From Proteromonas lacertae (lineage: Eukaryota), in the NCBI GenBank assembly GCA_002245135.1, contig NGBS01000590.1:124001-188000 (forward strand): a DNA stretch of 64,000 bases. Reading direction: 5' to 3'. A model generated the notes under the pieces. It saw only the letters and a list, made by a program, of their open reading frames with translations, was not told where the DNA came from and searched no databases. Every line of letters begins with the position of its first letter. Position 1 is the stretch's first letter. Shown piece after piece: positions 21,537-54,100 of the stretch. Both the position numbers and the translations under genes were made by a program.

Positions 21537-22373
21537 CTATTTAATCCAATATATTGCTTCAGCATATTTACTTTTACCTGGATTTTCATATTCATATATA
21601 ATTGGATTAGTAATACCGTTTTTACTTCTAAATTCATCAACTGCTTTTTTACAGCCTTTATATGAACCATAATCATCAAATTCTATATATCCATTTTTAT
21701 TTAACTTGTCATATGTATTCTCCAATAGAAACATTGTATTAGTGTAACTATCTGCATCAAGTCGAAGATAAGACAATTTTGGAATTTTAGTTTTTGGAAT
21801 TGTATCTTGGAACAAGCCACCAATTAAATTTACTCCATTGCTTAAATTATACACTTCAAACAAAGCTTTTACTTTTTTAACTGAGTTAGATCTCATATAA
21901 TCAGCAAAACCACCAACAACCAAGTTTTTTTCATAGACACCACTAATAGTAGCATTTTTTGGAAATCCACAGAAAGTATCAAACATCCACAGTTCTTTAT
22001 TTGTTACTCCATAAGCATCTAATATACCTTTAGCATACAACATGCTTCCACCTCTCCAATTACCTGCTTCAAGTATATCTCCTTCAATATTATTGTTGAT
22101 AATCTGCTCAACAATATATCTTATATTTTTTAACCTCATATAAGACAACAGAGTGAATTCACTTCTTTTAGCGAAATTGCTGAAAGGACTATTTCCTCCT
22201 ATAATGGAAAATTCGAGATATTGAATTGTTTTTAATATATTCTCCTGATGCAGATTGTTAGAATGTATTTTTGAGCTGTTTAACTGCTTTAACCTACCCC
22301 CTTTTGACATATATAGAGCAATGACTGAAGCAACTACAGTAATAACAACCAAAGCAGTTACTCCTCCAAACAT
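21537..22373 (-). CDS. TylF/MycF/NovP-family sugar O-methyltransferase with N-terminal membrane anchor; intronless
   Basis: GDILEAGNWRGGS, WMFDTFCGFP, GLFQDTIP, LRLDADSY, GYIEFDDYG, GCKKAVDEFR; hydrophobic N-terminus after ATG 22373. Confidence 0.88.
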   Translation of the reverse strand: MFGGVTALVVITVVASVIALYMSKGGRLKQLNSSKIHSNNLHQENILKTIQYLEFSIIGGNSPFSNFAKRSEFTLLSYMRLKNIRYIVEQIINNNIEGDILEAGNWRGGSMLYAKGILDAYGVTNKELWMFDTFCGFPKNATISGVYEKNLVVGGFADYMRSNSVKKVKALFEVYNLSNGVNLIGGLFQDTIPKTKIPKLSYLRLDADSYTNTMFLLENTYDKLNKNGYIEFDDYGSYKGCKKAVDEFRSKNGITNPIIYEYENPGKSKYAEAIYWIK

Positions 22374-22477
22374 GATTTTTTCAAAATCCAAATAGATTCT
22401 AACATAAACTTGGCTTGAAAATTTGTAACTGTCATATTTATATTATTGTCATTTACTCTTGTAATATAAAGAAAATA

Positions 22478-28283: not shown

Positions 28284-29770
28284 TTATATTAATTTCTTTT
28301 GAATAAATCTGAATAATGATTCATTCATTCTCTTGTTATTTTGTTTCTTATCTCCATATTCAAGAATCCAGTTATACAATTTATTCACTGTTAATTTTGA
28401 AATATCATATTTCATAAACTCATCTAATGATGGTTCAATTTTAGGATCATGGAATGGATAATATTCCATTTTGATTCTGTTATTATTAGCTGCACTACAA
28501 GCCATCCATTGAATCAAACATTTTAATTCATGATTTCCATGATAAACTCCACATCCCCAATTACCTGTACTTAATACATTCTTATTTGATAATTTTTCAT
28601 CTATTAAGAAACCTATATAAGCTTTATTCAGTTCTCTATCAACACATTTTTTACTAAATTCATATAATCTTTTATCAATTATTAAATAACCATTATATGT
28701 AAAATGTAAAGCATCAAAGATAGTATACTAGAATAAAATAATAATTATAAACATATATACATCATTCTGTAGTATTCCATCTACAACAGGTGCTTCATCT
28801 TTAATAATACCATTCAATACAGCTTTTTCTGCATAACCATCATATTTATTAAACTCTTCAAATCCTTGAATATAAACAGCTTCATTATCTTTCATTATTT
28901 CACATAATAACACTGCCAATAATGTTTCAGGTGATCTCATCTCTAATATCTCTTCCTGAACAAATCCAAAAGATAATACTCCACCTCCTACTCTTCTATT
29001 AGCAAATATAGAATGAATTGTTTCATTTCTGTCAGTCAAACTTCCATCTTTATTTATACAAAAATCACAAAGTTTCAAATCAATTTTAGACCAATCTATT
29101 GGACTTGGTAATACTTTACGTATTATTCTGATGTATTTAGCTTCTTTATTATGAAGTTCATCATTCTGCATACACTTAAAATATTGAAACATTCCAGCTA
29201 TTTTGTGAGGTATTATATTCTTTCTTTTTACATAATTCTTACCAAAGAAATAGAATTTGAATGATGAAAAATTTTCTGGACATGAAGTAAAAGTACCAAG
29301 CAGCAAATGAGAGAGTAAACATTCAACTAACTCACGATTAATCTCAATTTCACAATTCTATAATATTAATAAATAATTACATAAAATACACATTGTGATT
29401 CTAAGTAAGGAATTGGTTCTCCTATATAATCTACTAGTTTCTTTGATGCTTCAAGAATATGCTATAACCATAATAATATCATAAGGTTATAACATACATT
29501 AAATACTCCATCGTCTTTTAGATATTCATTACATTTTAAAATACCTGTTTCATCTTCTTTAAATATTAACTGAATGGCTTCAGCTATTTGTGGTTGTTTC
29601 ATTTCCACAAACATATTACTTATTCTAGAAGGTGTATATGGTGGTGTTGGTAGCTGAGTAAGGAAATGTTCCCATTTCTTCTCTACAATAGAATATTTAC
29701 CATCTTTTAAAAAAACAAATGGTAATTTAACATAGTTTTTTGGGCTGGTTTTGGAAATGTACTTAAACAT
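28284..29770 (-). CDS. PARG: Poly(ADP-ribose) glycohydrolase (canonical macrodomain PARG)
   Basis: FANRRVGGGVLSFGFVQEEI (GGG-x6-8-QEE signature), YDGYA, RELNKAY, STGNWGCGVY, KCLIQWMA. Confidence 0.9.
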
Positions 29771-29919
29771 GATGATTTAATGAAAGAATTATTTTTTTCT
29801 GTTTTAACAAAAATGTTAACAAATCAGATAATTTATTGTTCTTAGTGCATTATTATATTACGAGAAACAAATAAAGAGAATAATATTTGAAAATAGAAGA
29901 AAAATAACAATAAACTGAT

Positions 29920-31688: not shown

Positions 31689-31782
31689 ATTGAAACTATT
31701 CTGATGCTGGGAATGAAAATCAGAATGAAAATTGAGATTAATACATATGTATTATCTTAATACACTGTATTACATTATAAAC

Positions 31783-32816
<1,034 letters not shown>

Positions 32817-32928
32817 GTTTTATTTAATTTGTTTGTAATAATTTTTTCTTTTTACAGAGATAAATAAAATTTTACATTTCTATTTTGATCAAACATTCAT
32901 CAAACAATTCTGTTTTTATTTTGAAAAA

Positions 32929-35900
32929 ATGCCAAGATGCAGTTCATGCCAGATTGATCTTCCTCCTTATGAGTTTGATGATAGTGAATTAGCAAAAACA
33001 AATGATAGAATATGTAAAGTCTGTTATAAGCAACAAAGACATTATCCAAGAAATCCAATTCCTGAAGCATGGAACCAGTATAAAAAATCACCAAATCTAA
33101 GACAATCACCAACTACAAGAAAATATCCTCCATATCCATCTCCAGATTCCATTAATCCTTCTCGAGATTATTATCAACCACATCCACCATCTGAATTACC
33201 TTCTCCACCTTCAAACTATCCACCACCACCAGATGCTTCTCCATTACCACAATCAATAAAAAGAGGTTACGACAGAGAACCATATATACCACCTCCTCAA
33301 GAATATGCTCCACCTCCAAAATATTCACCAGCACCTCCTCCAAATGAATCTTATGATAGATATTACGAAAGATATAGAGATCATGATAGAATAGAAAATT
33401 CATCTCCATATTATGATGTTAAATACGCTAAAGAAATGATTCCACCATTATATTACGATATACCTCCACAACCAGCATATCCACTACCAAAACGTCATCA
33501 CCGCCATCACCATCATCATCATCGACATGCCAATGATGATTATCCACCAGGTATTCCACCTCCAGTACCTCTACCTGGTTATGATTATCGATATGATCAA
33601 AGATCAGCATATCCAGAAGATATGTACATGAGAGTAGAAGATCCATCTCATAGATATCCTCCAGATAATGGATATGCACCACCTCCGCCTCCTTCACCAC
33701 CACCTCCTCCACCTCCATCTCATTCATTACCTCCACCACCTTCATCACCTCCTCGACATCATCACCATTCATCATCACCATCATCTAAATATTATCCAAT
33801 GGATAAATCATATCATTCATCTCAATCATCAAGATATCCATCAGGAAGATATGAGCAATCACCATTACCATTATATTCATCATCTAATTATCCACCACCG
33901 TCAGTACCAATGTCTAGATATGGTGATAGCAGTAATAAATATGTAGATAGTAGACATCGAGATAAAAAATCCAGGTCTAGATCCAGATCAACATCTAAAA
34001 GACATAATAATAAAAATAGTCGTTATAATAGTAGTAAAGATAAGAGGAAACATTCTCGTTCTAAATCTTCCTCATCATCGTCTAGTCATTCCAGACGTTC
34101 ATCATCTACTTCATCCTCCTCATCTTCTCGATCTTCCTATTCTTCTAAATCTTCTTCTTCTCGTTCTTCTTCTACATCAACTCATTCTTCAAGTAGAAAT
34201 AGTAGAAAGAATATTAGGAATAGAAAAGGATATGAAAATACTAAACCAAGAGTGAAGAATAAGTTTTATTTTTTAGAAATCTATAAACATAGTATATAAT
34301 AATAATAATAATAATAATAAATACATAAATATATAGAAAATGATGATCCAGAAAGACCTGATTCATTTTCATTAGGAAAATTATTTAAAGTTGAATGTAA
34401 TCAATTTATTGTATATATATTTATTATTATTAATTATTAGTTGGATGTTAGTCATATCATTCCATCAGTTCAACACTATGTAATCAATGTAGAATGTCAG
34501 AAAACAAAGGCAAGAAGAGTATCTGAGAAGTTAAGATATAGTATTTATGACAACATTGTAGAATATATTCGTACATTATATAAAGGGAAAGATGAACCAC
34601 CTGATTTAATATTTGATGGTGTTAGGAATGTTTATACAAAAAAATTATTGCCACTACCAGAAAATATATATGAAACTGATGTATAAATATATTAATTATT
34701 ATACTTCTTTAGATGAAAGTTGATATTGACAAATTGACTAGATTATTCCATGTAAAAATGACTTTATATGCTAAAGATATAGATATGACTGTATTAAAGA
34801 ACAATCCAAAACAAACTGGTGAATTTCCAATCTTTCAATATTCAATACTTGATTCAATATTCTTACATTATAATAGTAAAATGTATATGAGAATTGGAGC
34901 TAAATATTTTGATCCAAGTGATCGATTAAAATTAATTAATAATACTGAAGTTTATAGAGGATTTTCACAAGTAACGCATTTAATTCAAAATGGGAATTCG
35001 GTGAATATAGATAATACTTCGGGTATATTTATTGAAAATATACCCGTTTCAAAATTTATTGAAAGAGTATTGAATGGATATGGTAGAACATTTGATTTGA
35101 AAAGATATGAAGATAAAGAAGGCAATTGTTGTTTAGATTTGAAACAAATTAGACAGCTTAAAGGAGAATTATTATCTTATAAAGTAATCTGTCAAACATC
35201 AAGGATTTAATCGTGAATATAAAATCAATGACATATCTCAATATTCTGCTTGTGAAACGAAGTTTAAAGATAATAAAGGTAATAGCATATATATAATAGA
35301 TTATTTCTTATCTCAATATAATATCAAATTGAAGTATCCTTCACTTCCTTGTTTGATTGTAGGAAATAATAAAGTAGCAATGCCAATGGAATTATGTTTG
35401 ATTAAAGATAGACAAAAGAGGAGAAAGAAAATTTCTGATGCTTTACAAGTTGAAATGGTTCAGAAGACTTCAATTAAACCAAGTGAAAGAAGGAAAGTAA
35501 TAATGAATATATTAAAAGCAAATGAAAAAATGTATTCGAATATTGAAAAGGAGACTGGAATTCATTTAATAAACAAATTTACTGAATGTAATGCGAGAAA
35601 GTTGGATGAACCATTTATTAGATATGCAAATAAAGATTTAGAACCGAATAATGGAGGATGGAATCAAAAAGGAATTGAATTATTAAAACCAGTAAAAATT
35701 GTATAATTATTTATTATTTTCATTTTTAATTTATAGAGAAATTGGGCTGTAATTAATTATGATTATCAATTTGATTGTAAATATTATTTAGATTCATTTA
35801 TTAATGCTGGATTGGATATGGGAATTGATATAACATCTGATTTACCAAAAATATATAAATGTGATATAAGATATATTGATAGTGTTAAAGATAAATTTAA

Positions 35901-36154
35901 AGAGATATTAAGTAATGATCATCATTGTCAACTTGTTGTTGTGTATATTCCTACTAGACAGACGGATGTATATGGATATATAAAAAAAGCAAGTGACTAT
36001 TATTCATCTATACCATCTCAAGTAATGGTGACGAAGAATTTGATAAAAGGTGGAGTGATTTATTTGTCTAATGTTTGGTTGAAGATTAATGCGAAATTAG
36101 GAGGAATAAATTTCACTTCTATTCCACCAGAAGTTAAATTTAAAAATCCATTAG

Positions 36155-36186
<32 letters not shown>

Positions 36187-36979
36187 TAAATTAATATAGA
36201 AGGAAACAGCAACTTGTTTAATGGGAGGAAGTATTTTATATCCTTCACTTGGAGTAAACTGTAAATCAATCGCTTCTGTTGTATGTTCAACAGATTTAGA
36301 AGGTTTAAGAGTAGCTAGTGAATGGAGATGTCAAGATTATAAGTCTGATATTATTCAAGATCTCGATGTGATGTGTTTAAAAATGTTGAAGAATTTTATA
36401 GAGAAAACTGGAGTTATTCCAAAGAGAGTTATCTTTTATAGAAATATTACAAGTGTTTGCCAAAAGCCATTAATCCATGAGGAAGAAATACCAATGGTTT
36501 TACAAGCTATCGATAAAGTATTTAAAAAAGAAAAAGTGAAATTAACTTTCTTATTGGTTTGTAAAAGACATCATGTTAGATTCTTTTGTGATGATAATAA
36601 ATTTACTGATTATAAAGGAAATATAAAAAGTGGAGCTGTGATAGATAATAGTGTATGTAGTAATAGTGGATATGATTGGTATTGTTATTCTCATAGCGGT
36701 TTACAAGGAACGAGTAAACCAACGTTATATGATGTTTTATACGATGAAGTGAAGTGGGATCCAAACGATTTATATTTAACAACCTATTGGCAATGTTTTA
36801 CATTTATTCGAAGTACGAAAGCAGTATCAATTCCTCCAATGGCTTATTATGCCTATTTGACTTCTTTTAGAGCAAGATATTTAACGAAGAGAAATGATGT
36901 GAATGATAATATGGGATATGATACTGATGAAAGAGTAATACTTAATCCTAGAATGTACAACGTAATGTATTACATTTAA
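32929..36979 (+). CDS. Argonaute (AGO clade) paralogue A: N-terminal C4 zinc finger, ~400-aa Pro/Tyr/His/RS-rich extension, slicer-dead PIWI; +1 frameshift at ~35193
   Basis: Five introns splice in frame. PAZ (LKYPSLPCL, MPMELC), MID (YGYIKK, PSQV, LKINAKLGG) and PIWI (KRHHVRFF, GTSKP, VSIPPMAYYA, MYYI) are present; tetrad positions read S/D/N/Y. Confidence 0.9.
36701..36852 (+). repeat. 152-bp tract identical to 40029-40180 (shared between the two Argonaute PIWI exons)
   Basis: Base-by-base comparison from ttacaaggaacgagt to ggcttattatgc shows no mismatch. Confidence 0.92.
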
Positions 36980-37126
36980 CAAATGAAATTGAATTTTCAA
37001 GTAAATAATAACATATTTCAGTTTTTAGAAATTTGTATTTGATCATGTAATTTTCAGTGTAATTGACTTTCTCGAACATTATATTTGTGACATTCTCTAC
37101 AGATAATGTCTTTTGACATTTTGTGT

Positions 37127-37138
37127 AAAAAGCTTGAC
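37127..37138 (+). promoter_or_regulatory. Candidate promoter element AAAAGCTTGAC upstream of Argonaute B
   Basis: The same or a near-identical motif occurs at 3587-3596, 5022-5030, 6838-6849, 47933-47946 and 62730-62741, each a short distance upstream of a start codon. Confidence 0.55.
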
Positions 37139-37163
37139 AGTAGTTTGAATATTTGTTTTATAA

Positions 37164-40100
37164 ATGCCTCGTTGTATTAACTGTCAGAGAGATTTAGCAA
37201 ACGATTGTTTTAGTAATAAACAATTGAAGAATAAAGCTGGACCTAAATGTGTGGATTGTGTCTCTGGTAAGATTCTTCCCAAAAGTGATAAGCCTGCAGA
37301 GCCAGCTCCTCCACCAGAAAAATCTAATCCTCCACAAGCAACTCAACTTCCCTCAAAATCTGCTGTGGAACCTAGTAAACCTAATTATGCTGATAACAAA
37401 GCTGTCCAACAAGCGCCAGCATGGGGAATGAATCAAAAACAAAATAACTATCAGCAGCAGGGGAAATCAGGTAAAAAACCTTATCAACAACCAAATCGAA
37501 ATGGTAATAGAAATATCCACCAAAAACCAGCATGGGGAGCTAATCCAGCTGAGCAGCCGATTGTAGAGCCAGTAACTAAGCCAACTGAACAGCCTCCACC
37601 TCCATCAGCTACATTAACAGATACACTGTCGTTACCAGCAGTAGAAAAAGCTTCAGATGTTAAAGAAGAGAAGAAGGCAGAAAATCCATACAGAGATCTA
37701 GAAATATATACAATTAGTATATTAATTTATTATAATTACATATATATATATATATAGGTGCTACTGATCCAAGAAGACCAAATATTCCAGTAAAATACAC
37801 TTTCAAAGTGTTTGCTAATATGTTTAAGATTGATATAAGTCACATGTGTCAATTTATTAATCATTATGACTTATCCATCACAGTTCCATCTGCAAAAACA
37901 GATGTTAAAGTAAAAGATGAGATAATTGCGCAAGTATGGAAGTTTATTGAAACTCAATTAATTCCAAGTTATAATCTAACTCCAAAACCTTTATTAATAT
38001 TTGATAGTAAAAAGAACATATTAGTAAATCAAATAATTCCATTTCCAAATGATTGTTTTGAAGCAGATGTATATATTATTATTATTATTATTAATTATAT
38101 TTATATATTTAAATTAGATGGATATAAAAATGAACAATAAAACAACAACATATCATATAAAGATTACTTTAGTAGATAGAAACATTGATATGTATCATAT
38201 ATTACAATATCCAGCCAAAATCAAAGACTGTCCATTATTACAATATTCAATATTGGATAATATATTCGCCTATTTCAATTCAAAGTTTTACCTTAAAGTT
38301 GGTGCAAAGTATTTTGATCCGCGTAACAGAACTCCTCTTGGTAAAGGTGCAGAAATATACGATGGATTTCATCAAGGAGTTCGAAGGATTCAAGCTGGTA
38401 ATGCAATTAATGTTGATATAGCAAATACTGCATTTATTGAAGCTTTACCAATACCTCAATTCATTGAGCATTTATTCACAGATAGAAGAGGTGAATTCTC
38501 ACTTAGAAGTTATGAAAATAGACATGGAAAATGTTGTTTAGATAGAAGACAAATTAAGCAATTGAAAGGTGAAATAAGTAATTATTTAGTAATATGTAAA
38601 CATCAAGGATTTGCACATCAATATAGAGTGATGGGAGTAAGTGAAAACTCAGCAGATCAATATGAATTTGAAATAGAAAAAGGTAAAAAAACAACAGTTA
38701 GCCAGTATTTTGTAAATCAATATAACATAAAATTAAGATATCCAACTTTACCCGTATTATTATTAGGAGGTAACAAGATAGCAATGCCAGCAGAGTTATG
38801 TGTGATAAAAGAAAATCAACGAAGAAAAAAGAAGGTATCAGATGAACAACAAGCTACAATGGTTCGAGAAACTGCAAAACGCCCTGCTGATAGAAAGAGA
38901 ATAATAATGGATATTTTAAAGAACAATCAAAATATTTATTCATCACTAAACAAAGAAATGGGAATAAATGTAGATACAAAGTTTATGGAATGCAATGCGA
39001 TGTTATTAGATGAACCAAAGATAAAATATGCAAATCAAATGGTTGATCCAAATAATGGAGGTTGGAATCAGAAAGGTGTAAAATTATTGAAACCAATGGA
39101 TTTAAATAGTTGTGCAGTGATTAACTGTGATTATAGGTTTAATGCCAAAGATGGAATAACGAGATTTTTCGAGATGGGTGAAAGAATGGGAATTAGAGTG
39201 CCAAGAAATACACCACCAATATATAATTATGATAATCGTAATGGATATAATGAAATTTACAATATATTTGATAGAATATTTCAAAAAGGTGAAGTACAAA
39301 TTGTATTTGTTTATATCCCAAGAAGAGAAACAGAGATATATACTCATATAAAGAAAGCTAGTGATTATCATAATAAAATTCCATCTCAAGTAATGGTAAC
39401 TTCAAGTGTTTTAAAAGGAAGAGATCAATATTCATCAAATGTATGGTTAAAAGTAAATGGTAAATTAGGAGGAATCAATTTCACAGCAATGCCTCCAAAA
39501 CCAGCATTAAAGAATCCATTGACTGCAGTTCCAACAATATTATTAGGAGCTGATGTTACTCATCCAAGTCCTGGTACAAATATGAAATCCATTGCTGCTG
39601 TTGTATGTTCTACAGATTTAGAAGGTTTAAGAGTAGCTAGTGAATGGAGATGTCAAGAAAGCAGAGTTGAAATTATTCAGAATTTAGGAGATATTGTTGA
39701 GAAATTCTTAAAGAATTGGATTAAACATAATCCTAATGTTGTACCAAAGAGAATTTTATTTTATAGAGATGGTGTTAGTATTAGCCAAAGACCTATAGTA
39801 CAAGAAGAAGAAATACCTTTAGTATCAATGGCTATTAAAAAAGTGTTTGGTGATAAAAGTGATATTAAATTAACTTTCTTGTTGGTTAGAAAAAGACATC
39901 ACGTTAGATTTTTCAGTGAAGATAAACGATTTGTTGATAGAAATGGAAATATTGTAAGTGGAGCTGTGATAGATAATAGTGTATGTAATCCTGATGGATA
40001 TGATTGGTATTGTTATTCTCATGGAGGATTACAAGGAACGAGTAAACCAACGTTATATGATGTTTTATACGATGAAGTGAAGTGGGATCCAAACGATTTA

Positions 40101-40316
40101 TATTTAACAACCTATTGGCAATGTTTTACATTTATTCGAAGTACGAAAGCAGTATCAATTCCTCCAATGGCTTATTATGCTCATTTAACAGCATTTAGAG
40201 CAAGATACTTGACAAAAGTAGATGATTCCACTTCAGTTGTTTCTGGTGGTAGTGAAGAAACTGATACATCAGTATTAATGGCTCCATCTATGTATAACGT
40301 GATGTATTACATTTAA
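37164..40316 (+). CDS. Argonaute (AGO clade) paralogue B: N-terminal C4 zinc finger, intact DEDH slicer
   Basis: Two introns; GADVTHP, QESRVEII, YRDGVS, YYAHL, LKVNGKLGG, C-terminal MYYI. Confidence 0.95.
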
Positions 40317-40423: not shown

Positions 40424-42161
40424 TTAGAAATCTACTGTTACATTCACTTCTTTTACTGCACCACTTGTCTCTCTTATTCCTACAACCAATACACCATTTT
40501 CATTAATTGACATAGTAACATCTACTTTAATTTGACCAGCTGGTTTTCTTGGAATATTTGGAATTAAACATTCTCTTAATTTATGATTAGCAGAAGCCTT
40601 CTTATCTTCACCTTCATAAATCACTACATTAATTGATTCTTGATTATCTGACACTGTGAAATATCTTTCAGTATTTGTAGCTGGAATTGGTTTATTTGCT
40701 TCTAATATAACAGACATTTTATCACCTAAAACAGCAATTCCAAGAGAATGAGAAATAACATCATGAATAATAATTTTACCTCCTCTATTGTTTGAAATTG
40801 GCACTTTAAAACCATTATTACTACCATCAACAACAACTTTAGAGCCTTTTGTACCACCAGTTGCTGATTTTACTACGACTTTTGCACCACTACTCTTTGG
40901 AATAACACCTTCTGGTGGTTCAATATTGTTAGCTCTAGCAACAAAATTACCTGTTTTTGTATCAATTATCACTTTAGCTCCATTTGGATATGTCTTTTCT
41001 TCACATCCTCTCACTAAATCTTCTGCTAATAATGCAGCTCCAATAGCTACAGCTTCATCTGGATTGATATCTTTGTTCAAAGTCCTACCAGCAAAACATC
41101 CTGATAACATTTCTTGAACCTTAGGAATTCTGCTACTTCCTCCAATTAATACAACATCTTGAATACTTTCTTTTGACAATCCACTATCTCTTAATGTCTT
41201 TTCTACTAACTCAATTGTTCTATCAAATATTTTTTGATTTAATCGATTGAATAAAGGTCTAGTTAAGGTTGTATCAATATCATTATCTTCTAAAATATCA
41301 ACCTCTATATCTGTTTCATTCATTTCACTTAGTAAACATTTTGCTTCATCACATGCTTTTCTTAATTTGTATAACTTCTTTGGGTCTTTCATTATGTTTA
41401 TTCCAGCATCACTTTGTAATTTTTCTGCATAATAATTCACTAAATTTGAGTTGATATCTTCACCTCCTAAATGAGTATCACCTCCTGTTGCTTTTACTGT
41501 GATCTCATTATTCTTTACTTCGATTATACTGACATCAAAAGTACCACCACCAAAATCATACACTAAAATAGTTGAATTAGATTTCTCTTTTACATACTTA
41601 TAACCATAGGCAATAGCAGCGGCTGTTGGTTCATTTATAACTCTCAATACATTCAATCCTGCTAATTCACCAGCTTGAATTGTTGCTCTTCTTTGATCAT
41701 CACTGAAATAAGCTGGAACTGTAATAACAGCATTCTTTGTATCTGCAGCTGCTTTACCTGTTGATTCAACTGCTGAATTAGCTAATTCTCCAAGAACATA
41801 TCTTGATATTTCGTAGGGAGCGAAATCTTTATCTGCTCCATTTACTTTTACTCTAATTTTTGGATTATTATTAGTCATTAATTACTTTAAAGTTCCAATG
41901 TTTTATATCTTCCTGAACAGCAGGTTCATTAAACTTATGACCTATTAATCGCTTAGCATCAAAAACTGTTGAATCAAGATGAGTAGCAATATCATTTCTA
42001 GCCAGTTCACCTACTATGATTTCACTTCCTTTGAATTGAACGTAAGATGGAATAGTTCGCTTACCAGTTCTGCTTTGCACTACAGTGGTTTTTCCATCAA
42101 CTGCATAAGCCAAGCATGAGTTTGTAGTACCTAAATCTATTCCAAAAGTGAATAAAGGCAT
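40424..42161 (-). CDS. Atypical Hsp70: NBD + expanded linker + SBD-beta, no helical lid or EEVD; intronless; +1 frameshift at ~41874
   Basis: GIDLGTTNSC, TVPAYF, INEPTAAA, DFGGGTFDVS, GGSSRIPKVQ, NPDEAVAIGAA, TVSDNQ; ends at EVNVTVDF*. Confidence 0.9.
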
Positions 42162-42292
42162 TTTTAGATTTTAGGGAACTTTTTTGGTTGTATTAAAATG
42201 TATTTACAGTAGAATAAGATGAACTGAACTAACTAATTATTTGAGATAAAGTTATTTATCCAATACACACACACAGAATATCAAGTAGAAAA

Positions 42293-45200
42293 TTATGTTC
42301 TTCTCATATTTAGAACCATTAACGCATTTTCAGCTGCTTTTATCTCTGCATTGCTTTTGAATTTACTTATAGCACAGCCAACACATTCTTCATTTACTTT
42401 CACAGTTATTTTCGACTTTTCACCTAAATCTTCTTTTTCAAATACTGCAGGAGGTAAATTATTTGCAGATAGATAATGCTATTCATAATTATAAAACATA
42501 TAATTATACAGATAACTCAGTAACAGGATGTTTCGGTATATTCAGAGGTGAAATATTCTTCAGCAATTGTTCATATATTCTATTAACTACTTTTTGTGCA
42601 GTGAATAAAATTAAGGTAAATAATATAAATATAAACATTCATTAAAAAACAAAAGGATATCTATAATAACCTCCATCTATTAAAACTGCTCCAATTAATG
42701 ATTCAAATATATCAGCAAGTACTTTTGGAGTATCAACACCAGTTCCCCATTTACTGTGATCATATTTTCTACTTGGTTTTTTAGATGGACATAATGGTGA
42801 TATTTCAAGAAATTCATAGCCATTGCCATAATTAATATTGCCATCTATTAATTCACTGACAAAATCTCTTATATTATCATCCACTATACTTTTTGAGTTT
42901 CTTATAAATTGATTTATTCCTAATGATGCTGATATATAAGCTAATGTTTCGTTGTTGGTTAAATAACTCTTAATTTCTATACAAATAATAATAATAATAA
43001 ATAAATATTCATACCTGTCAATTGTTGTATAGTTAAATCAGTATACTGCATTGTCCATCCATTCGAGAATAATGTAATCTAAAAATGAATCTCCTATAAA
43101 TTCTAGTGTTTCATAATTACTAGATTCATATGTTATAACAGATTTCAAAGTAAAAGCTCTTTTTAATAATTCTGTATTTATAAATGAGTATTGGATTATA
43201 TTCTCTACATCACGCACCCATTTCTCTTTATTCTTTATATTAATATTATAAACAAAGATTCCACTATCCATATTGTTGTATAAACACTTCTTTATCATAT
43301 CAAGTAATGGTTGTTGGTTAGAATGCATCATAATTTCATTAAAACAATTAAAAGCACTGGTAAGTCCATCTATTATTATTATTATTATTAAATTATAAAT
43401 TTATACAATTCAAATCAATGAAATAAATAATTGCAAATAATGCTGATTTTAGTGAGGATTCTGGAATTTCTGTTTCTTCCTTACAATTTGTAAACATTGG
43501 AATCCATGACTTTGGCATATTTGCAGATCTAATAACTCTAAATAATTATTAATAATGATAATATATATACTCATATAGTCTCAAATATTCTGCAGTTTCT
43601 TTAATATGCTTCTTAGTAAACATCTTATTCCTCTCTGATGATAAAAATGATGCTGTTTCTGATGAGTATTGATAATAAAGTAATAAACTAAGCAAAAACC
43701 TATATAAACATTCATAAAATAATGAATATACTTTGTTAGAATATTTCCTAAGCTAGAATACTTCTCATAATTGTAATCTTCATTATAAGAATAAGGAGTT
43801 AAACAATTAACTATCATATTAACATCATCTACACCATATGCTGTTCCAGCATTTAATAATTTCTTTTTCAATTGAGAAAACCTTGTTGCATATTCATATT
43901 CATAAGCCACTGATGGTAAGAAAGGCATAAGTTTCATTTCATCACAACTTCCACAGCAAACAGTACAAAATTCAGGTAAGAAATAGTAATAATCATTTGA
44001 ATATGTATAATTATTAATCAATAACACACATTTTACTGCAGTTTGATCATCTCTACAAGCAAAACCATATTTACTAAAATATAACTCTCTAAAGGATGTT
44101 TGACAAAGACTATCTTTTATATAATCTGGACTAATATCAGTTATTTCAACTACTTTATATAAATTCTCTGAAGAAGAATCTGTAAAATCAAGTGATTCAT
44201 GAGATATAATCCAATCTTTACAATCTTCTTCTCTTTTGATATGAAACAGTAATTTATCCTCATATTTTCTTTCAACTACTGGTAATAACACTTTAACTTG
44301 AAATGCAATAAATGGATTTTTAAATAAACCCATTTCATAGAACAAAATGTTTCTATCTCCATTTAATTTACATAAATAATATTGTTTACCAACTGAGCAA
44401 TCATAACTGTTAGTAGTACAATTGTAACAACCCAAAATATTCAGAGTATATGACTTTAAAGACGAAATATCATCATTATCCAATTCTATTGATTTATAGT
44501 ATGACCATTTTCCATTATATTGTTGATTGCTATTGACAAATGTAAAATTATAATTAATATTTTCTTTAGATTGACATATAATTCCATAACAATATTTACA
44601 TACATTTGCATTATCAGCAGAAGTACAAGTTAGTGTGTATAAATGATATGTAGAAGATGAGTTCAACTTAAAATATGAAGAATCTATTTCATATTTTACA
44701 ATTTTTGCTTCTCTCGTCATTATACTCTTCTATTTTAATAGTAAATTTATATATATACTGATTCTTTTGGTTGAATATCTGATATTACAACTACATTTGA
44801 CTGACTTTTAAACGGATATAGAAAAGGAGTTACGATTCTCTTTTCATACATTTCGATACAGAATTTGTAATAGATATTTATCAAAGCATATTTCTTTGAT
44901 ATTGACTAATAGAATAATATAACAAATAATATATTTTATATATACTACATCACTCTCAATTTCATTAATTGGAGAATTACTACTAAATATTGCTTTGATT
45001 CTACAATGTTCATTATCTATTATTCTCTTATATTGTAATTCTGGCTTTCTATTCATATATATATAATGATAAATATTATACTCAATTCTTAAAAACGAAA
45101 GTAATCTATAAAATAAATATTGGCAATTAAAAGATGTGATAGTTTCACCAGTTTCTCTAATAACATAACTTAATAATTGCTTATCATCAATATAAGTTGT

Positions 45201-47828
45201 ATAATTCGTTGATTTATAACCACTCTTATCATTCTTGTCTATAAACACATAATATTGATTATTATAACCACTGCTAATCTCTTTCTCTGTTTTTATATCA
45301 TTTATAGGTATATTAATATCATCCAATCGTATTACAACATCATAAACTGAAAAAATAATGTCTTTATATAATTCTTTTGTAGATATTAATATATTATAAT
45401 TATCCTATATAAAATAATAATAATACCTTAATAAAAATACATTTTCAAATTGATTTACATACAACTGCTGATTGATTTTACCAATTACTATCACTTTATT
45501 AATATTATTATCAGCAAATACTGACCAAAGTATGTTTGCATATATATTTTGTTTAACGAATATGATTATTTTAATCTTACAATTATCTTCAAGCAGTTTG
45601 TATATTAATTTCAATAATTTGTTTAATTTATCACTATAACTTTCATATCTTGATTTAGACAATATCATATTCAATTCTGCTGGTACACTTATTACATTAC
45701 TGTTTTTAAGATCATTTATGTAATTAACACATGGAGTTATTCCAAATGTGATTAAAATATCTTCAACTTCTTCATATACTCTATTTCTCTTTTTTAGTCT
45801 ATCTAAACAATCTTTCATTTGATTTATTTCTAATGATTCATCTTCTTCATAAGTAATAATATCTTCCATAACCATATTTTTATTTATTATATCTTTTATT
45901 TCTTCATCATCATTTGGTAATACTTCGTATTTACTTTCCTATTTTATAATATGAATTTATATAATATCATACTATTCGTATTGGTGGAGATGTTGGAGTT
46001 GGTGATGGAGTTGGTGTTTCACTTGGAATAGTTGGAAGTATTACATTTGATAGAATTTTTGTACATTTTATACATATTTCAGTAATAGTTGACATATATG
46101 TGTTTAACTTTTGACAATTATTCAATTCATCATCGTCGTAAAACACTACATCTCCATATTTAATGAAGGTAAAATCATTATTCCCTTTAGGTTTATTAAC
46201 GAAATTATTATAAAGGTATTCTAAAACTTTATTAAATGTATTGATCATTATTTCTTTCCATAAATCAAAATAATTAACTATCTTTATAGTAATATCCTAA
46301 TAGAAATAAATAAATAAAAACTATACATCTTTAGCAGTATCTTCTGATAAACAAAATTCAGATTGGAATGAGTAATTATTATACTGACATTCTATTCTGA
46401 AAACACTATATGTACTAACTATGGATGGAGAATTGAATATTAATTCAGGTTGTTTCTTATTATAATTATTACAATATAAAGTAAATAAATAATATAAATA
46501 ACACTTGTCAATTTCACTTGAATTTGGTGGGTCTGTTAAATTAATAGATTGAAAGGGATTTGTTGATGAAGTTATAAATGTAGATGTAGAGGAAGAGAGT
46601 GTAGATTCAATTAAATTACTATTGGATGTAGATGCAATTGTAGATTTAGGCATAGATTTTATTGAATATGAGTCTTGAGATTGAATAAGTGAAGTAGAAG
46701 GTTGTTGTTGAAATGATTGAGTTGGTAGAATGTTAAATGGTGGAGATTGATATGATGGAGGTTGTTGTTGTTGTTGTTGAAATTGTTGTTGTTGGAATGA
46801 TGGAGGTTGACATTGTTGAGATGTTTGATATTGATATTGATTATATTGTTGCTGTTGATATGGATTTTTATTTTTCAACTCTTTATAATAGTTATAAACA
46901 TCTTCAGCAACTTTCTAACAATAAATAAATAAATATATAATAATAATAATACTTGATTAGCTGCGTTTTTTGACCTTAAACTACGAGTAAATAATTTTCC
47001 ACACCAAGTGCATGTTGCTGTAAATGAGCCATTATCTTCTAATATCCTATCATTATTATGTAAATAACAAAATATACATTATATTTGGCAAATCATAACC
47101 ACTTTCTTGTATTTCTTTAAACATAGATTCTTTATTCAAAGGAGTGGAAGAATGAAATATTTTATTTGGTATTATTGGTTCAGTTGATGTAACATATTGC
47201 ATGTAAGGATTAACAGGAGCTGATTTAGTCATTGGGTCTAAAGGAGTAAAAGATTTTGGAGAATCAAAAGTTGGTACTGTTTTATTCATTATGCAAGAAG
47301 GATTAGAAGGTTTGACAGGAGTTTGATTCGGGATTTGATTTAATTGTTGAATTCCCGATTTAGGATATCTTGTGTTTTCTGGCGAATCTAAAAAAAGTAA
47401 TGCCTTTTGCGCTACTGCTTTTTCAGCTTCTTTTTTACTATTATATTCTTTATCTGTCTTAAATGTTCGATCAAAACATTCCACTGTACATTGAAAGTAA
47501 CTATTGCCTTTTTTGTTGGTTGGATCAGGAACAGGTATGTGCTTAAATTAATTAAAGATTTAAATAATTGTATGAAAAATTAAAAAGGATATTTATAATT
47601 AAGTTTGGAATTCATTTTATTTTTCTGTAAATACTGACTTAGCATTGATTTATAATCTTTTAGCTGTGTGTCTTTCGGTATATTTGCTTGTACTGGAAGA
47701 GTTTGTATATTAACATTGTTTTGGACAACCGGCTTAATAGGATCGCTAAATTCATTTAAATTATTAAACTGCTGAGTATAAAAATACTACTACATAAAAG
47801 AATATAAACATACACTTTGCATATCCAT
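42293..47828 (-). CDS. Dicer-like protein: 3 N-terminal dsRBDs, degenerate Hel2i/Hel2, DUF283, platform/PAZ, inactive RNase IIIa, active RNase IIIb, C-terminal dsRBD; +1 frameshift at ~43053
   Basis: About 15 introns traced from ATG 47828 to TAA 42293-42295. PAZ/connector SFRELYFSKYG...FLPEFC...FLPSV; RNase IIIb NYETLEFIGDSFLD and PKVLADIFESLIGAVLID; final HPVTEL...SNAEIKAAENAL. Confidence 0.88.
42601..42660 (-). other. U12-type AT-AC intron (60 nt) in Dicer, at the end of RNase IIIb
   Basis: Donor ATATCCTTTT, branch TACCTTAAT 9 nt before a terminal AC; removal gives AG|T and IDGGYYSAQKVVNRIY, skipping two in-frame stops. Confidence 0.9.
47543..47592 (-). other. U12-type intron (AT donor, ambiguous acceptor) inside Dicer dsRBD1
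   Basis: Donor ATATCCTTTTT, branch-like TCTTTAAT. As assembled, the frame requires an AA end at 47543 (or AT at 47537); AG or AC ends would need one more A before the donor. Confidence 0.75.
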
Positions 47829-48102
47829 TAGCTATAAATTTAAATTAAACGAAGGGTAACTATTAATATGTATATTATTCGGAAGTAGAAAAATATATGT
47901 ATAAGTAGAAAAAATGTATAATTAAAATCAATAAAAAAAGCTTGACTTCAATGTGAATGTCAAAGTCCATTTTACATATTTCTACTCAACCAATCAATAT
48001 TATTATGATTTGTTATATTTAATGTTATAAAAAAATAAAAAGTTAATAAAAATGATCATTTTTATTTAACAATATGTTCTACATTAAGATTTCTCAATGG
48101 AC

Positions 48103-51100
48103 TTACGATATTCCAACATACGTGTTATATTGTGAAGTAATAGCATCTTCTAAAATTTTTGAAAACTGCTCAGGATCATCTGATCTGTGATTGTATATAT
48201 GAGGATATAATTTTACCAATTTTTCAGATGTTTGTAATAAAGACACATCTTTACATACTTTATTCTCTAAAGCAATGAAATGAATATCAGCTTTCAATTT
48301 CTTTATATTTTCAAAACAATCATACCAATCTACAATCCATTCAGTATCTTTTTCTCTATCTCTTGGATAATAATCAGTATTAGGAACTTTTGAATCGCCA
48401 TGACCTGCTGCATCTCCACAAATAATAATGCAATGTTTATAATTCTTATATTCACCTAACAAATTCTCTACTGCATAGTTTACACCTCCATATACATCTT
48501 CACATATATCACCACCTCCTTTTTCCTTTACTGTTGACAAATAATTCTTTATTTTTTCGAAATCGCTTGTTATTCCAGAAGTGATTATTCTTTCTTCACC
48601 TGCATCAAAATCTCTATAACCAACAAATTGACCAACAATTTTTGAATTTGGATTGACTTTTGAATCTTGTTTTATCCTCACTATTTCATTGAATATATCG
48701 ATTAAATGCTGTGTTGTTTGTTTTATATATTCTTGCATTGAAACTGTACAATCTAATATTATTGTAAGACAGAAATTGATTGGCAAAAATTGTTTTCTAA
48801 TTTCTACATTTGGATCAGGTTTTATATTATTAATATTTATATTAAATTCATGTTGAAGTGTTTTTGGCATTTCACCACCTGCATTTCCAGCAAATGAAAA
48901 GAATGCATCAATATTTAATAGCCAAATCATCGAATTAGATATCCATCTACTAGCATCAGGTGTGAATTCTTGGAATAGTTTTGAAGCAGCTGTGTCAATT
49001 ACAGTTTTACCTTCACCTTCTTTACTTTCTCTCAACATAATAGCAGCATGATCATCATGTTCTCTAGCAAACACCACAAAACCTTTATCTATTAAATCAT
49101 TCTCATTTAAACAAGCTAAAGTATTTCCTTCTTTTATTATATCTAAGCCTGTATCAATTCTTAAACTAGACATATTATAATCCATTAAATTTTGACCAAT
49201 TGTCTGAAACATTCCTCTGTCAGCTTTTAATCCTCTTCTCATTTCTGATCCACCTGATACTTCAGTTTCTTCATCCACTATATCAATATTATAATATTTT
49301 TTAAAGTATTCTACTGCTTCATAATTGAAAGGAGGATTCTCTAACATCCAAAATATACCACCTCCATTCTCCTGATATTCATTTAAACATTCTAAAAATG
49401 AAGTTAAATATTTAATATCACTGTTTGGATTTTCTTCAGGGAATCTACCAGTTCCATCACTACAAGTAATAAGAATAGATCTGTATTTACCTGTTGTTAT
49501 TTCTCTTACAGCACTATAATAATCATATACAATTTCTACATTAAATCCTTTTGTTTGTAATTTCTTCTTTGGACTATTTTTACCATCACATCCAATTGTT
49601 AAAGTCTGAACTGTTATATTCTCATCGATTATTCTTCCTTCTCCATCTTTTTCATTTCTACACAAATACAAAATCACAAACAAGATGTTAAAATCTTTGA
49701 ACGATCCATCAACGCCTAAATCATATTCAGAATTAGTTAAATCAGCATCAATTGATGAAAATGAAGGATCATTTGAATGATGAGCATGTAAAAATTGTGC
49801 TCTAAATTCATAAGCTGATGGTATATTTGTTATAGATTTTACCATTTCACGATCTATTATTGAAACAGCTTCAAATTCATTTACATTTTGAGGTGTTAAA
49901 AATGGATATTTTGGTAATGTATATGATGATAAATTTGCTGCTGTTGGATTATTGATAGATGCAATAGCTTTATCCAAATTATCAGGATTATAAGACCAAA
50001 TAAAATGAGGGAAGATATTCTCTATTCCATACACTGTATAACCAACACCTATTCCTACTGTTGCACAATCAATACTCTTTATTATACTCTTTATCGATTT
50101 TCTAGTTGTTTCATTAGTAATACCATTTGTTAATATGAATATTAATGATGTATAAGGTCTTGCTGAACATGTAGCAATTGCATATTTTATTGTATCACTT
50201 AAAACTGTTTGTTGAACTAAGTTATTCTGACAATTCTCAATTACTGTATTTATAGAACTTGCAACATTAGATCCCCAAGCATCTGTTGATGTTAATCCTG
50301 TTCCTATTCTATTTATTTTATCTGTAGCTATCCAAATATCAATAGCTGGAACATTCACTTCACATATACCTCTTAATAATGTAAAGAATGTTTTTATTGT
50401 GTGAGATATGTTAATTGGACTAAATGTCACTTCTGAAGCATCTAATACAATTGAAACACTGTAAGATCTTACTTTATTCCCTGTTTTCTTTTTAAACAGT
50501 TTCCCATCAGTACTAATTCCTGCAATATACTTCATATAATTTTGAAAATGAATAGTAGTACCAGTTGCACTAGCTACCCAAGAAGTTGGTTTATTTGGTA
50601 TTACTAATGTTGAGTTTAATGGATAAAATAATATATTACTTTTTATCTTTTCATTTAAGAATTTCTCTAATGAACCATTGCCTATACCATTTACTATTTG
50701 ATCCAATTCTTTGTCTGCTATTTGAGGCAAACTTTTGGAGTTAATATTCTCATGACTTTCGTCTGAAATAACCAATATTTCACTTTCCTGTAATGGAGGA
50801 AATGAAAATTCAAATCTATTTGACTGAGATGGTTTTACATTTACAATCTCATCAGAATTTATATTTTCTACTTTATCTAATTTAGAATAGAATAATGGAT
50901 AAATGGAATTCATTAATATTGAATTTAATAAATCAGAAAGTTTACTTATTGATTGGTAATGCTTTGATGTAAAATTTGTATCTAATATATTCTTCATTAA
51001 TTGTGTATTTTCAGTTGATAATATTTCATCTTCTTTATCTTCAGAAAACACTCTAATAATGAACAGATATGGAATATATTTTCTAATATCATCCAATGTA

Positions 51101-54100
51101 GAAGAACATGTTGTCAAAAGCTGTTCACTGAAACAATCACTTATTATAACATACAAATATTCATTATTACTTGTAACAACTCCATCTTTCTTATATGCAA
51201 ATATATCTAATGGTGTAGAAGGCATTTTCTCAACAGATTCCAAATCAAAGATTCTACACATCTTAACAAATATATTCTCTTCTGGCTGAGCAACTGAAAT
51301 GACTTGTCCATGAGATATTGATGCAACTACTCTTGTCTTTATATTCAATTCATTACACAACAATAACATCACAATTCCTATCAATGTTCTTAATCTTGCT
51401 TTATATTTTTTATGTGTAAATGAAGTATCAATTACTATTGTCAACATCTTAATATATTGTTTCTTTTCAAATCCTTTCGCATTTCTTACTGCATATGACA
51501 TATTAAATACAGAAGGTAAAAGTATTTCTTTATATTTTTCCATTAACTTCAACTGTTCATCTGTTAATTTACTAAACTGAGCTGCTTTTAATGTATCTTC
51601 TTCTTTTTGCAGTTTCATTATCTTTGTTGCATCTTTATCTACTCTTCTATCGTAAATTGATTTGAAATAATTATCCAAACCTTGAGAAATGAATTGTTTC
51701 AATATATCTCTAACATATATTGTTCTTAAATCATTTCTTTCTCTCTGAATATCTTCATCAGATTTTAATTCATATGGATTTGATTTATCATCTTTTAATT
51801 CTTCTGGAACTAATTCTGACATAAATGTACCTATCACATCTTCCAAACCTGCATCTCTTACATCGGATTTGTCAAACACTTTATAGCCTTTGACATTATC
51901 ATTATCTTTAGATTGTTTAACGTAAAGCTTAGATGATGTTGTTGTTTCTTCCTCTTGTTCAACTGTTTTACGATTTGGATCAAATAGACTTTGAATATCA
52001 TCAGAATTTGTTATTTCATGTATATTACCTGAAGTTTTCCAAATTAATGGTATACTTCTTGATGATAAATACTCTATATTCATTTTCACCAATCTATTGA
52101 TAGTTTTCATGTATTGTTGTTGATTTGAATCAATATACTTCAAAGCATTTATGAATTTATTAACTTCTTCAGGATGTTTTTTAGATGAAAATTTCACCAA
52201 GAATAGATTATCTAAACTCCTCATATACTTTTTAACATTACCACTAAATAGTTCATTCTTTAAGTTTTCAATGTCAATTATATTATCTGGTATATCTTCC
52301 AATAGATTATCAATAGAATAGGAAAATTCATCAAATACATTCCATTTTCCATCTTTAGTAATAAACATTTTACTTGAATTATTATAACTATAAGAAACAT
52401 TTCTAAAACCATATGTGTTATATTTATCTAAATAAAATACATCATCAGTATTTAAATCATGTTTAAACTCTTTTCTTCCTTTATCATCAAACCAAAATAC
52501 TATCAATTCTTTTGGACCATCACTTCTTGGGGTATAATTCAATATTCTATTCTTAGTATTATCAATAAAACATGGATAATTCAAGAAATAAACAGTGTCA
52601 GATTTTTCCACATTAAATGTAAGAATAATTTCTTTTTGACATTGAGGTGTTGTTAATTCAAGTTTTGCTTCCTTCTTTCCTGGTAGTAAACTATGAAACA
52701 CTATATCTAATTTGGATGAGTTTATAATTGTTGCTTTACAATATGGAGTTTTTGATTTTACATAACATTCTACAAGTGATGGGTTTAGAATTGATATTGA
52801 TATATTTGGATCATTTCTTGAACATACAAATGTTGGTAATTTAAATGTATTATCCTTTGGAAGTATAATTTCATATCCTTTAACATTAGTTATTAATATA
52901 CAATTCTTAAGAATAGGAAACTTAGATGATTCTGAATCTGAAATAGCCAGTTGATTAATAGATTTAGGTAAAAATATTCTTTCATTGTAAGATAAAGGCT
53001 CTTTCAATTTATGTAAGCATTCTTCATTATGTTTTTCACTTTCTTGATTCTTAATTAACTCTGATTGCAATCTCTCCATTATACTATATTTTTCATTAAT
53101 TATCTTGACAATTGGATTATATTCAGAAACTAAAGAAGTATATTGATCTGATTTTGCATCATATTCAAAATAATGTGATTCTTTATAATTTTCTTTATTC
53201 TTAAACAAATCATATGAATATTCATTAAACTCTTCTGGTATTTCTGCAAAGGATGCTTTTTTAGGAACTTCAATAAGTGAAACTGAGTATCCTCTAAAAT
53301 AAAAAGGACAGACTGGGAAGTCATTTTGAATTTTATAGTATTTACATGAATCAACAGGAGATGGCATAACTGTATATTGTACGCTTTGTCTGGTAAGAGT
53401 TTCATCATAGAATAAAGTAACTACTTCAGTACTTGATTGAGATGTCTTACTATAAAAAGTATTCTCATTTAACACAAATCTATATTTATCCAAATAATCT
53501 TCATAGCCTGATAAATCATAATAAACATTATATTTCTGACAAAACCAACACATATTTGAAACTAATTTCCAAAAAAAATTATCATTTGTAACATTTCCTT
53601 GATTATAGTTATAATATTTGAACTGAATATTAACATTACTATTTCCCAATAATTTTACACTAACATTATAACTAGAGAATGGCAAAACAATAGGCAATTC
53701 TGTAACTGAACTACCAAAAGCGTTATGAATAATACTAATGAATTGATGGAACATATTTCCCTTTTCTACTCTGATAGTGTTATTAGTAAACTTAATTGGT
53801 AATGGTTTACCTATTATTCTATACTCAAAAGGCAAATCATCATTTGTATATTTAAATATAACAATTTTTAAATATTGACCTTTAGGAGAATCAGCTAAAT
53901 ATGGATTTACTTCTTCTAACAATTTCTTAACTGGCGATGTATCTGAATTTCTTAGAAAATGATTTACACTTTGGTGATAAAACACTGTCTTTATCCAATT
54001 GAATGTTTCATCAAAATTATCAATTCTTTGTACAATTCTATTATATTTCATTTTTTTAAACTGTATTTCTTCTTCAACTTGTTGTTTAAGTTGAGTAATT

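Follow-up and report, generated by a model that had tools for sequence, protein, structure and literature searches.

In Schizosaccharomyces pombe (fission yeast), the adaptor protein Stc1 (SPBP8B7.28c; PDB 2LUY; Pfam family PF12898) binds both Argonaute and CLRC, the Clr4 histone H3K9 methyltransferase complex. It is a separate protein of 25 kDa with two C4 zinc fingers and an acidic C-terminal tail, the latter being the part that binds Clr4 (10.1101/271270, citing He et al. 2013). Bayne et al. (2010; PMC2875855) reported that the substitutions K100A and R116A in Stc1 abolish its detectable association with Ago1 and leave CLRC binding and recruitment, as well as tethered silencing, intact. Here, we describe two adjoining Argonaute genes, A (ATG at 32929) and B (ATG at 37164), both on the plus strand of a 64,000-nucleotide stretch of Proteromonas lacertae DNA (assembly GCA_002245135.1, contig NGBS01000590.1, positions 124,001 to 188,000 of the forward strand; hereafter the window, with all coordinates counted from its first letter). 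The predicted product of each gene begins with one finger of the Stc1 family, and this combination of an Stc1-type finger with an Argonaute is a new and conserved Argonaute architecture, for which a mechanism can be proposed. The two fingers are located as follows.

32929..33027, plus strand: gene A finger, a single Stc1-family C4 zinc finger, residues 1-33, degenerate
37164..37262, plus strand: gene B finger, a single Stc1-family C4 zinc finger, residues 1-33, net charge +3

A preliminary description of this DNA, made from the sequence alone, had noted the pattern CxxC-x8-F[SD]xx[QE]L-x7-CxxC at both N-termini, and both start codons, both peptides and the pattern were found exactly where it had placed them. 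The family pattern, CxxC-x21-CxxC with an F-S-x-x-Q-L core, is matched fully by B, whereas A has the cysteines, F and L but carries D for S and E for Q (S17D and Q20E; net charge -2). A six-frame scan of the window for CxxC...CxxC returned three matches, namely A, B and a minus-strand match that is unrelated to them, and no second CxxC pair was found in either exon 1. The A and B fingers have 12 of 33 residues in common, a score matched by none of 100,000 shuffles, and with the four cysteines held fixed the likeness still gives p = 0.0036. The linkers that follow them had been called unrelated, in agreement with a local alignment score that was reached by 75 of 500 shuffles. Since synonymous sites in the fingers are saturated (proportion of synonymous differences, pS, 0.85), the common residues have been kept by selection and not by recent copying.

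The preliminary description had named the Stc1 family from the cysteine pattern, and this assignment held in reciprocal profile searches and in a fold match to 2LUY. The Pfam Stc1 model is a curated two-finger model; the B finger matched positions 53-83 of its 84, one of the two repeats, at an E-value of 6.6e-4. The score (20.6 bits) lies below the gathering score of 24.8 bits, as do those of the orthologues described below (16.4, 20.5, 21.7 and 21.6 bits), and the A finger gave no match at E <= 10. A profile built from four finger rows and searched against 1.84 billion representative sequences returned 72 matches at E <= 0.001. In the reciprocal test, Pfam Stc1 was recognised at E <= 0.01 in 62 of the 71 matches other than the orthologue P0121, and 39 of these reached or exceeded the cut-off; among the families listed for each match (the best five families in four rows) neither PIWI nor PAZ occurred in any of the 71. 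A profile made from 13 outside fingers, themselves first detected by a profile that included A and B, was then scored against 812 frames of the window and 120 Argonautes; B scored 42.6 bits and A 32.5, with the next best at 4.3. In the PDB, a 16-row profile reached Stc1 (2LUY) at E = 0.008 behind two repeat-driven unrelated matches, and profiles of two and four fingers did not find it at E <= 10.

AlphaFold2 models of the fingers had mean confidence (predicted local distance difference test, pLDDT) of 90.8 for B and 88.5 for A. In Foldseek comparisons the B model superposed on 2LUY with a root-mean-square deviation (rmsd) of 0.8 Å over 32 columns (TM-score 0.78, probability 0.87, E = 0.9) and the A model with 1.1 Å over 34 columns (probability 0.99, E = 0.086). 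For both models 2LUY was the best match by TM-score and probability, while by E-value it ranked second for B and first for A. VIA-align placed the finger on Stc1 residues 90-124 (Z 3.1, rmsd 1.4 Å, 35 aligned), with the finger of IQUB tied at 3.0; this human flagellar protein (PDB 8J07, chain c2, residues 598-632) matches the models almost as well as Stc1 does. Judged by sequence profile and modelled structure, the element is a single Stc1-family finger, canonical in B and worn in A, whose fold and zinc binding are predicted.

A search with both fingers yielded two proteins among four candidates, P0121 and P0122, whose clusters comprise 10 Logan records. In eight of these records the reading frame passes from the finger across the first intron, which is unspliced, and on into the Argonaute N domain; in the other two it stops within the intron. 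On P0122 both ArgoN and Stc1 were matched by Pfam. A third orthologue group, P0133 (three records), has the finger and the same motif ahead of the intron. All three groups of B orthologues thus keep the finger, and two of them hold finger and N domain in one frame. Identity between B and P0121 is 88% in the finger (29/33), 45% in the linker and 70% in the N domain; the corresponding values for P0122 are 82% (27/33), 43% and 67%, and the finger of P0133 is 76% identical (25/33). The finger is therefore the best-conserved part of the N-terminal third, followed by the N domain and then the linker. No orthologue of the gene A finger was found, and no related locus was confirmed when JGI metagenome contigs were scanned twice.

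These records bear on whether a fusion protein is made at all, as the finger exons might instead be separate small genes or be skipped. The splicing of A and B is predicted from sequence, and in-frame methionine codons lie downstream of the finger (residues 170, 232, 234, 291 and 328 in A; 89 in B). Against this, exon 1 of each gene contains no intron-like segment and runs without a stop into a conserved motif, present in A, B and every orthologue, that directly precedes the same phase-1 intron; the gaps between genes measure only 111 and 184 nt, and the orthologue records read from finger to N domain in one frame. We consider separate genes or exon skipping extremely improbable, and the finger very probably belongs to the Argonaute protein.

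Gene B is predicted to consist of three exons.

37164..37716, plus strand: exon 1, the finger and then a linker of about 140 residues rich in Pro/Lys/Ala/Gln, with two PAWG motifs
37758..38068, plus strand: exon 2, the Argonaute N domain (ArgoN at E = 4e-4 on the orthologue P0122)
38118..40316, plus strand: exon 3, L1, PAZ, L2, MID and PIWI, with the Y-K-Q-K pocket and the tetrad D-E-D-H

Joined across two GT-AG introns, these give 1021 amino acids with no internal stop, in the order N-L1-PAZ-L2-MID-PIWI, the ArgoN family itself being matched only on P0122. The product matches AGO2 in the PDB at E = 1.7e-62. Its catalytic tetrad is formed by D767, E806, D839 and H977 (codons at 39552, 39669, 39768 and 40182), and the guide-binding pocket of MID, Y-K-Q-K as defined in PMC6284064, is retained in both B and A. 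Gene B is hence predicted to encode an intact slicer of the AGO clade. An Ago hook was one possible reading of the conserved PAWG motif, but it was dropped because WG motifs are common in the low-complexity N-terminal extensions of this clade (16 of 85 long homologues).

Gene A is arranged similarly, with predicted exon 1 followed by five body exons (34337-34410, 34441-34680, 34713-35700, 35737-36153 and 36200-36979; six exons in total).

32929..34291, plus strand: exon 1, the finger, a Pro/Tyr/His-rich linker and an Arg/Ser/Lys-rich block, reaching to where the Argonaute N region starts
33913..34236, plus strand: Arg/Ser/Lys-rich block, residues 329-436, 71% R+S+K, 19 RS/SR dipeptides
34337..36979, plus strand: Argonaute body, with the guide 5'-end pocket Y-K-Q-K kept and S-D-N-Y at the catalytic positions
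35190..35210, plus strand: frame break where PAZ begins, caused by an extra base at about 35193, with a stop at 35208-35210
36701..36852, plus strand: 152-nt tract identical to 40029-40180 of B, ending one base before the fourth catalytic codon

The Arg/Ser/Lys-rich block has no counterpart in B. Histidine runs occur in the linker at 33505-33522 and 33757-33768, beside Pro-rich and Arg/Ser-rich blocks. The first intron lies at the same place and in the same phase as that of B, and the two proteins are 52% identical over 843 positions. All four catalytic residues are replaced in A (S-D-N-Y, codons at 36230, 36347, 36443 and 36854). The preliminary description had both Argonautes splicing in frame to the body, which applies to B as predicted; as assembled, A is in frame through the N and L1 domains, breaks at about 35193 and ends after 724 residues, with its PAZ and Piwi matches in separate frames. 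The frame break and the lost tetrad of A had both been missed there.

The frame break is either an assembly error or a recent lesion. A +1 frameshift triggered by the stop was rejected because the likeness to B resumes several codons ahead of it. Gene A may be a recently broken pseudogene, whose finger would say nothing of present function. Besides the break and the replacement of the whole tetrad, its branch is about four times longer than that of B (0.47 versus 0.12) in a tree of 35 rows made by a quick method only, which included 32 of the 120 homologues. When A is read on both sides of the break, however, 1286 codons contain no stop, and divergence from B is about 0.84 at synonymous sites (dS) and 0.41 at nonsynonymous sites (dN), a dN/dS of about 0.5; A has therefore been translated through most of its history, and its guide pocket is retained. 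Two further one-base breaks in the window, one near 41875 in an Hsp70 gene and one near 16060 in a minus-strand gene of no Pfam family, where the frame changes without an intron inside a run of A, suggest errors of assembly, whereas a midasin-like frame of 14.5 kb free of breaks tells otherwise; such breaks were looked for in some of the genes. On balance the break is probably an assembly error, and a pseudogene is a possible but doubtful alternative.

Exchange between the two genes is indicated by the 152-nt tract, which is likely the result of gene conversion. A second exact tract in PIWI measures 47 nt (36290-36336 in A, 39612-39658 in B), and others measure 32 and 28 nt. The two longest tracts stop just before catalytic codons; conversion halting before the active site would be consistent with selection for a difference between A and B, although this is a single case. 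In the same quick tree, A, B and a related PIWI fragment, P0211, stand together on one long branch with support of 100, and the tree does not place the organism; as P0211 keeps DEDH, an intact tetrad is the likely ancestral state.

What the finger does can be approached through its relatives. The segment matched here, Stc1 residues 90-124, is finger 2 of that protein, which holds K100 and R116; at the R116 position B and its three orthologue groups have kept a lysine. By analogy, we tentatively favour the view that the tethered finger is a built-in protein-docking module, most likely one that holds on to the body of an Argonaute, whether its own or that of a second one, and does not recruit a histone methyltransferase. 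In such a protein, a long tether of low complexity would lie between the Stc1-family C4 finger and the AGO body, with the predicted splicing joining the two; in the manner of Stc1 finger 2, the finger would hold the body of an Argonaute, either in cis or in trans, the ligand being presumed. In B, a working slicer, it could clamp or pair Argonautes during loading or target binding. If the break in its frame arose in assembly, A would be a paralogue that binds guides and does not cut, in which the fold of the finger is kept and its basic face lost.

Several points weigh against a docking role on Argonaute. The Foldseek E-values of the two models are not significant (0.9 and 0.086), with fingers of the PacI nuclease and IQUB nearly as close, and the splice that creates the fusion rests on prediction. 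K100 of Stc1 aligns with Leu11 in both A and B, and R116, at Lys28 in B, aligns with Ile28 in A. Stc1, the only tested family member found in the literature, where sources were available in part, has two fingers. Because the family is mostly basic and is also found on proteins unconnected with RNA interference (RNAi), Argonaute binding may be special to Stc1, and a finger that binds the protein to which it is fused needs an extra assumption, either a clamp or a dimer. A complex prediction for exon 3 of B with the B finger scored 0.00; made with alignments not used and the N domain absent, it is no evidence either way.

The wider family suggests two close rivals, RNA gripping and an unrelated partner, because its fingers are mostly basic (median charge +4, n = 151) and mobile. 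In the first, the finger would be a basic nucleic-acid gripper that helps Argonaute to hold target or duplex RNA, and would have no more than its fold in common with Stc1. The charge of the B finger (+3) agrees with this, as do the La, CCCH, RNase H and PCIF1 domains found among its partners and the DNA-binding PacI and Rad14 among near fold matches; the nearest Atlas cluster to the finger is viral (13% Pfam Stc1, score 0.88) and counts as a lead only, all finger leads there being under 0.9 and P0122 giving nothing. The A finger, however, is acidic and yet kept (only about 5% of the 151 family fingers are as acidic), and the part of PMC2875855 available to us describes no RNA binding by the fingers of Stc1. 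We regard nucleic-acid gripping as somewhat unlikely.

The finger may otherwise be a general, mobile protein-interaction module with a lineage-specific partner unrelated to Argonaute or chromatin. Profile evidence indicates that it is a mobile module: across the 71 matches it accompanies ankyrin, RNase H, MYND, ZZ, alpha-kinase, La, CCCH, PCIF1, LRR and SET domains, and a single finger at the extreme N-terminus precedes unrelated domains in 18 of the 70 matches with a domain call. Partners such as ankyrin, MYND, ZZ, alpha-kinase and LRR, and the similar finger of flagellar IQUB, would suit a general role in protein binding. This leaves unexplained why the finger outdoes the Argonaute N domain in conservation, and the one tested relative, Stc1, does bind Ago1 (PMC2875855); an unrelated partner is judged unlikely.

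The mobility of the finger also weakens the Rosetta-stone argument of the preliminary description, which had proposed that an Stc1-Ago fusion brings in an H3K9 methyltransferase complex and thereby ties small RNAs directly to chromatin silencing. The finger is a true member of the Stc1 family on an Argonaute, one of the 71 matches (P0186) joins it to a SET domain, and the Arg/Ser-rich block of a non-cutting A could take that protein to nascent RNA. Stc1 finger mutants, however, still recruit CLRC (PMC2875855), only a single finger is present, and B is a predicted slicer. No CLRC-type acidic stretch was found in the extensions of A and B, which hold at most eight Asp/Glu in 30 residues with a lowest net charge of -4 (orthologue extensions, 5-6 in 30), the criterion being taken from the cited description of the Stc1 tail, itself not scored alongside. 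From the K100A and R116A results together with the missing acidic stretch, it follows that the fusion keeps the half of Stc1 that holds Argonaute, without the half that calls the methyltransferase. The chromatin inference hence does not follow from the fusion, and direct recruitment of the methyltransferase is quite improbable. We give a similarly low probability to a broader proposal, in which the finger would be an old Argonaute-docking module far outside the fungi that pairs slicer B with the non-cutting, Arg/Ser-rich A, the tail of A reaching nascent transcripts and the pair effecting co-transcriptional or chromatin silencing with no adaptor.

The surroundings of the two genes are eukaryotic in character, with a GC content of 23-33% and short, very AT-rich GT-AG introns. 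The 3' motif of Blastocystis does not follow the gene ends in the window, so that kinship with Blastocystis found no support. A Dicer-like gene (42400-47900, minus strand) lies 2 kb from gene B, and genes A and B with this gene form a small RNAi cluster. Its region contains a Pfam dsrm match near the 5' end (47056-47547) and RNase III pieces (42642-43400); inspection by eye suggests that the first RNase III signature, near 43770, is degenerate, and the double-stranded RNA-binding part may or may not belong to the same gene as the RNase III pieces. Between gene B and the Dicer-like gene is the divergent Hsp70 (40424-42170, minus strand), whose C-terminal part is short. Upstream of gene A lie a Dim1/KsgA rRNA dimethylase (31780-32817, plus strand), the 3' end of which is 111 nt ahead of gene A, and, farther away, a PARG gene (28284-29776, minus strand). 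The midasin-like open frame (48103-62565, minus strand) has 4820 codons, with several AAA domains and a vWA domain. A protein with HYDIN/CFAP65/ASH Ig-like domains (12722-15190, plus strand) may hint at a flagellated organism. An intron-free TylF-type O-methyltransferase (21537-22442, minus strand; E = 3e-47) belongs to a mainly bacterial family and is a possible case of lateral transfer.

A conserved natural fusion of this kind suggests that the finger and Argonaute cooperate outside fission yeast; in the literature, as far as the sources were available, the Stc1-Ago1 contact was not linked to any other organism. By itself the fusion shows no link to chromatin, and it offers a single-chain system in which the contact between finger and Argonaute could be mapped. 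It also adds a folded accessory domain to the N-terminus of Argonaute, which is usually of low complexity, and the pairing of an active with a dead Argonaute beside a Dicer-like gene constitutes a compact locus for RNAi in a lineage that has been little sampled. None of the 120 Argonaute homologues among the matches listed (134 found), a sample in which animals and plants are well represented and protists sparsely, has an N-terminal C4 finger, and the best identity outside the relatives described above is 35% among the matches listed. No report of an Stc1-finger/Argonaute fusion was found in a literature search of titles and the starts of abstracts, with subscription journals mostly outside it.

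Compared with described systems, the Argonaute bodies have the domain order of human AGO2 and the AGO clade (ArgoN, ArgoL1, PAZ, ArgoL2, ArgoMid, Piwi) and its guide pocket, with DEDH in B. The tandem AGO clusters of oomycetes are similar in another respect: in Phytophthora clade II (PMC6284064) the MID pocket is better kept than the catalytic residues, as it is here, and the choice between pseudogene and non-slicer is open there too; zinc is not mentioned and no finger is reported in the available part of that paper. Small zinc-finger modules that dock on Argonaute or PIWI proteins are also known from GTSF1/Asterix and the LIMD1 type (10.1101/271270), but these are separate proteins with tandem CHHC or LIM fingers, not fused to Argonaute, and GTSF1 is described as unrelated to Stc1 in the same source. 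Stc1 itself remains the closest counterpart, with the same family of C4 finger, the predicted fold and a tie to Argonaute; it differs from the proteins described here in being a separate adaptor with two fingers and an acidic CLRC-binding tail, where A and B have one finger, fused and with no acidic tail, and in having K100 and R116 at the positions that read Leu in A and B, and Lys in B and Ile in A, respectively.

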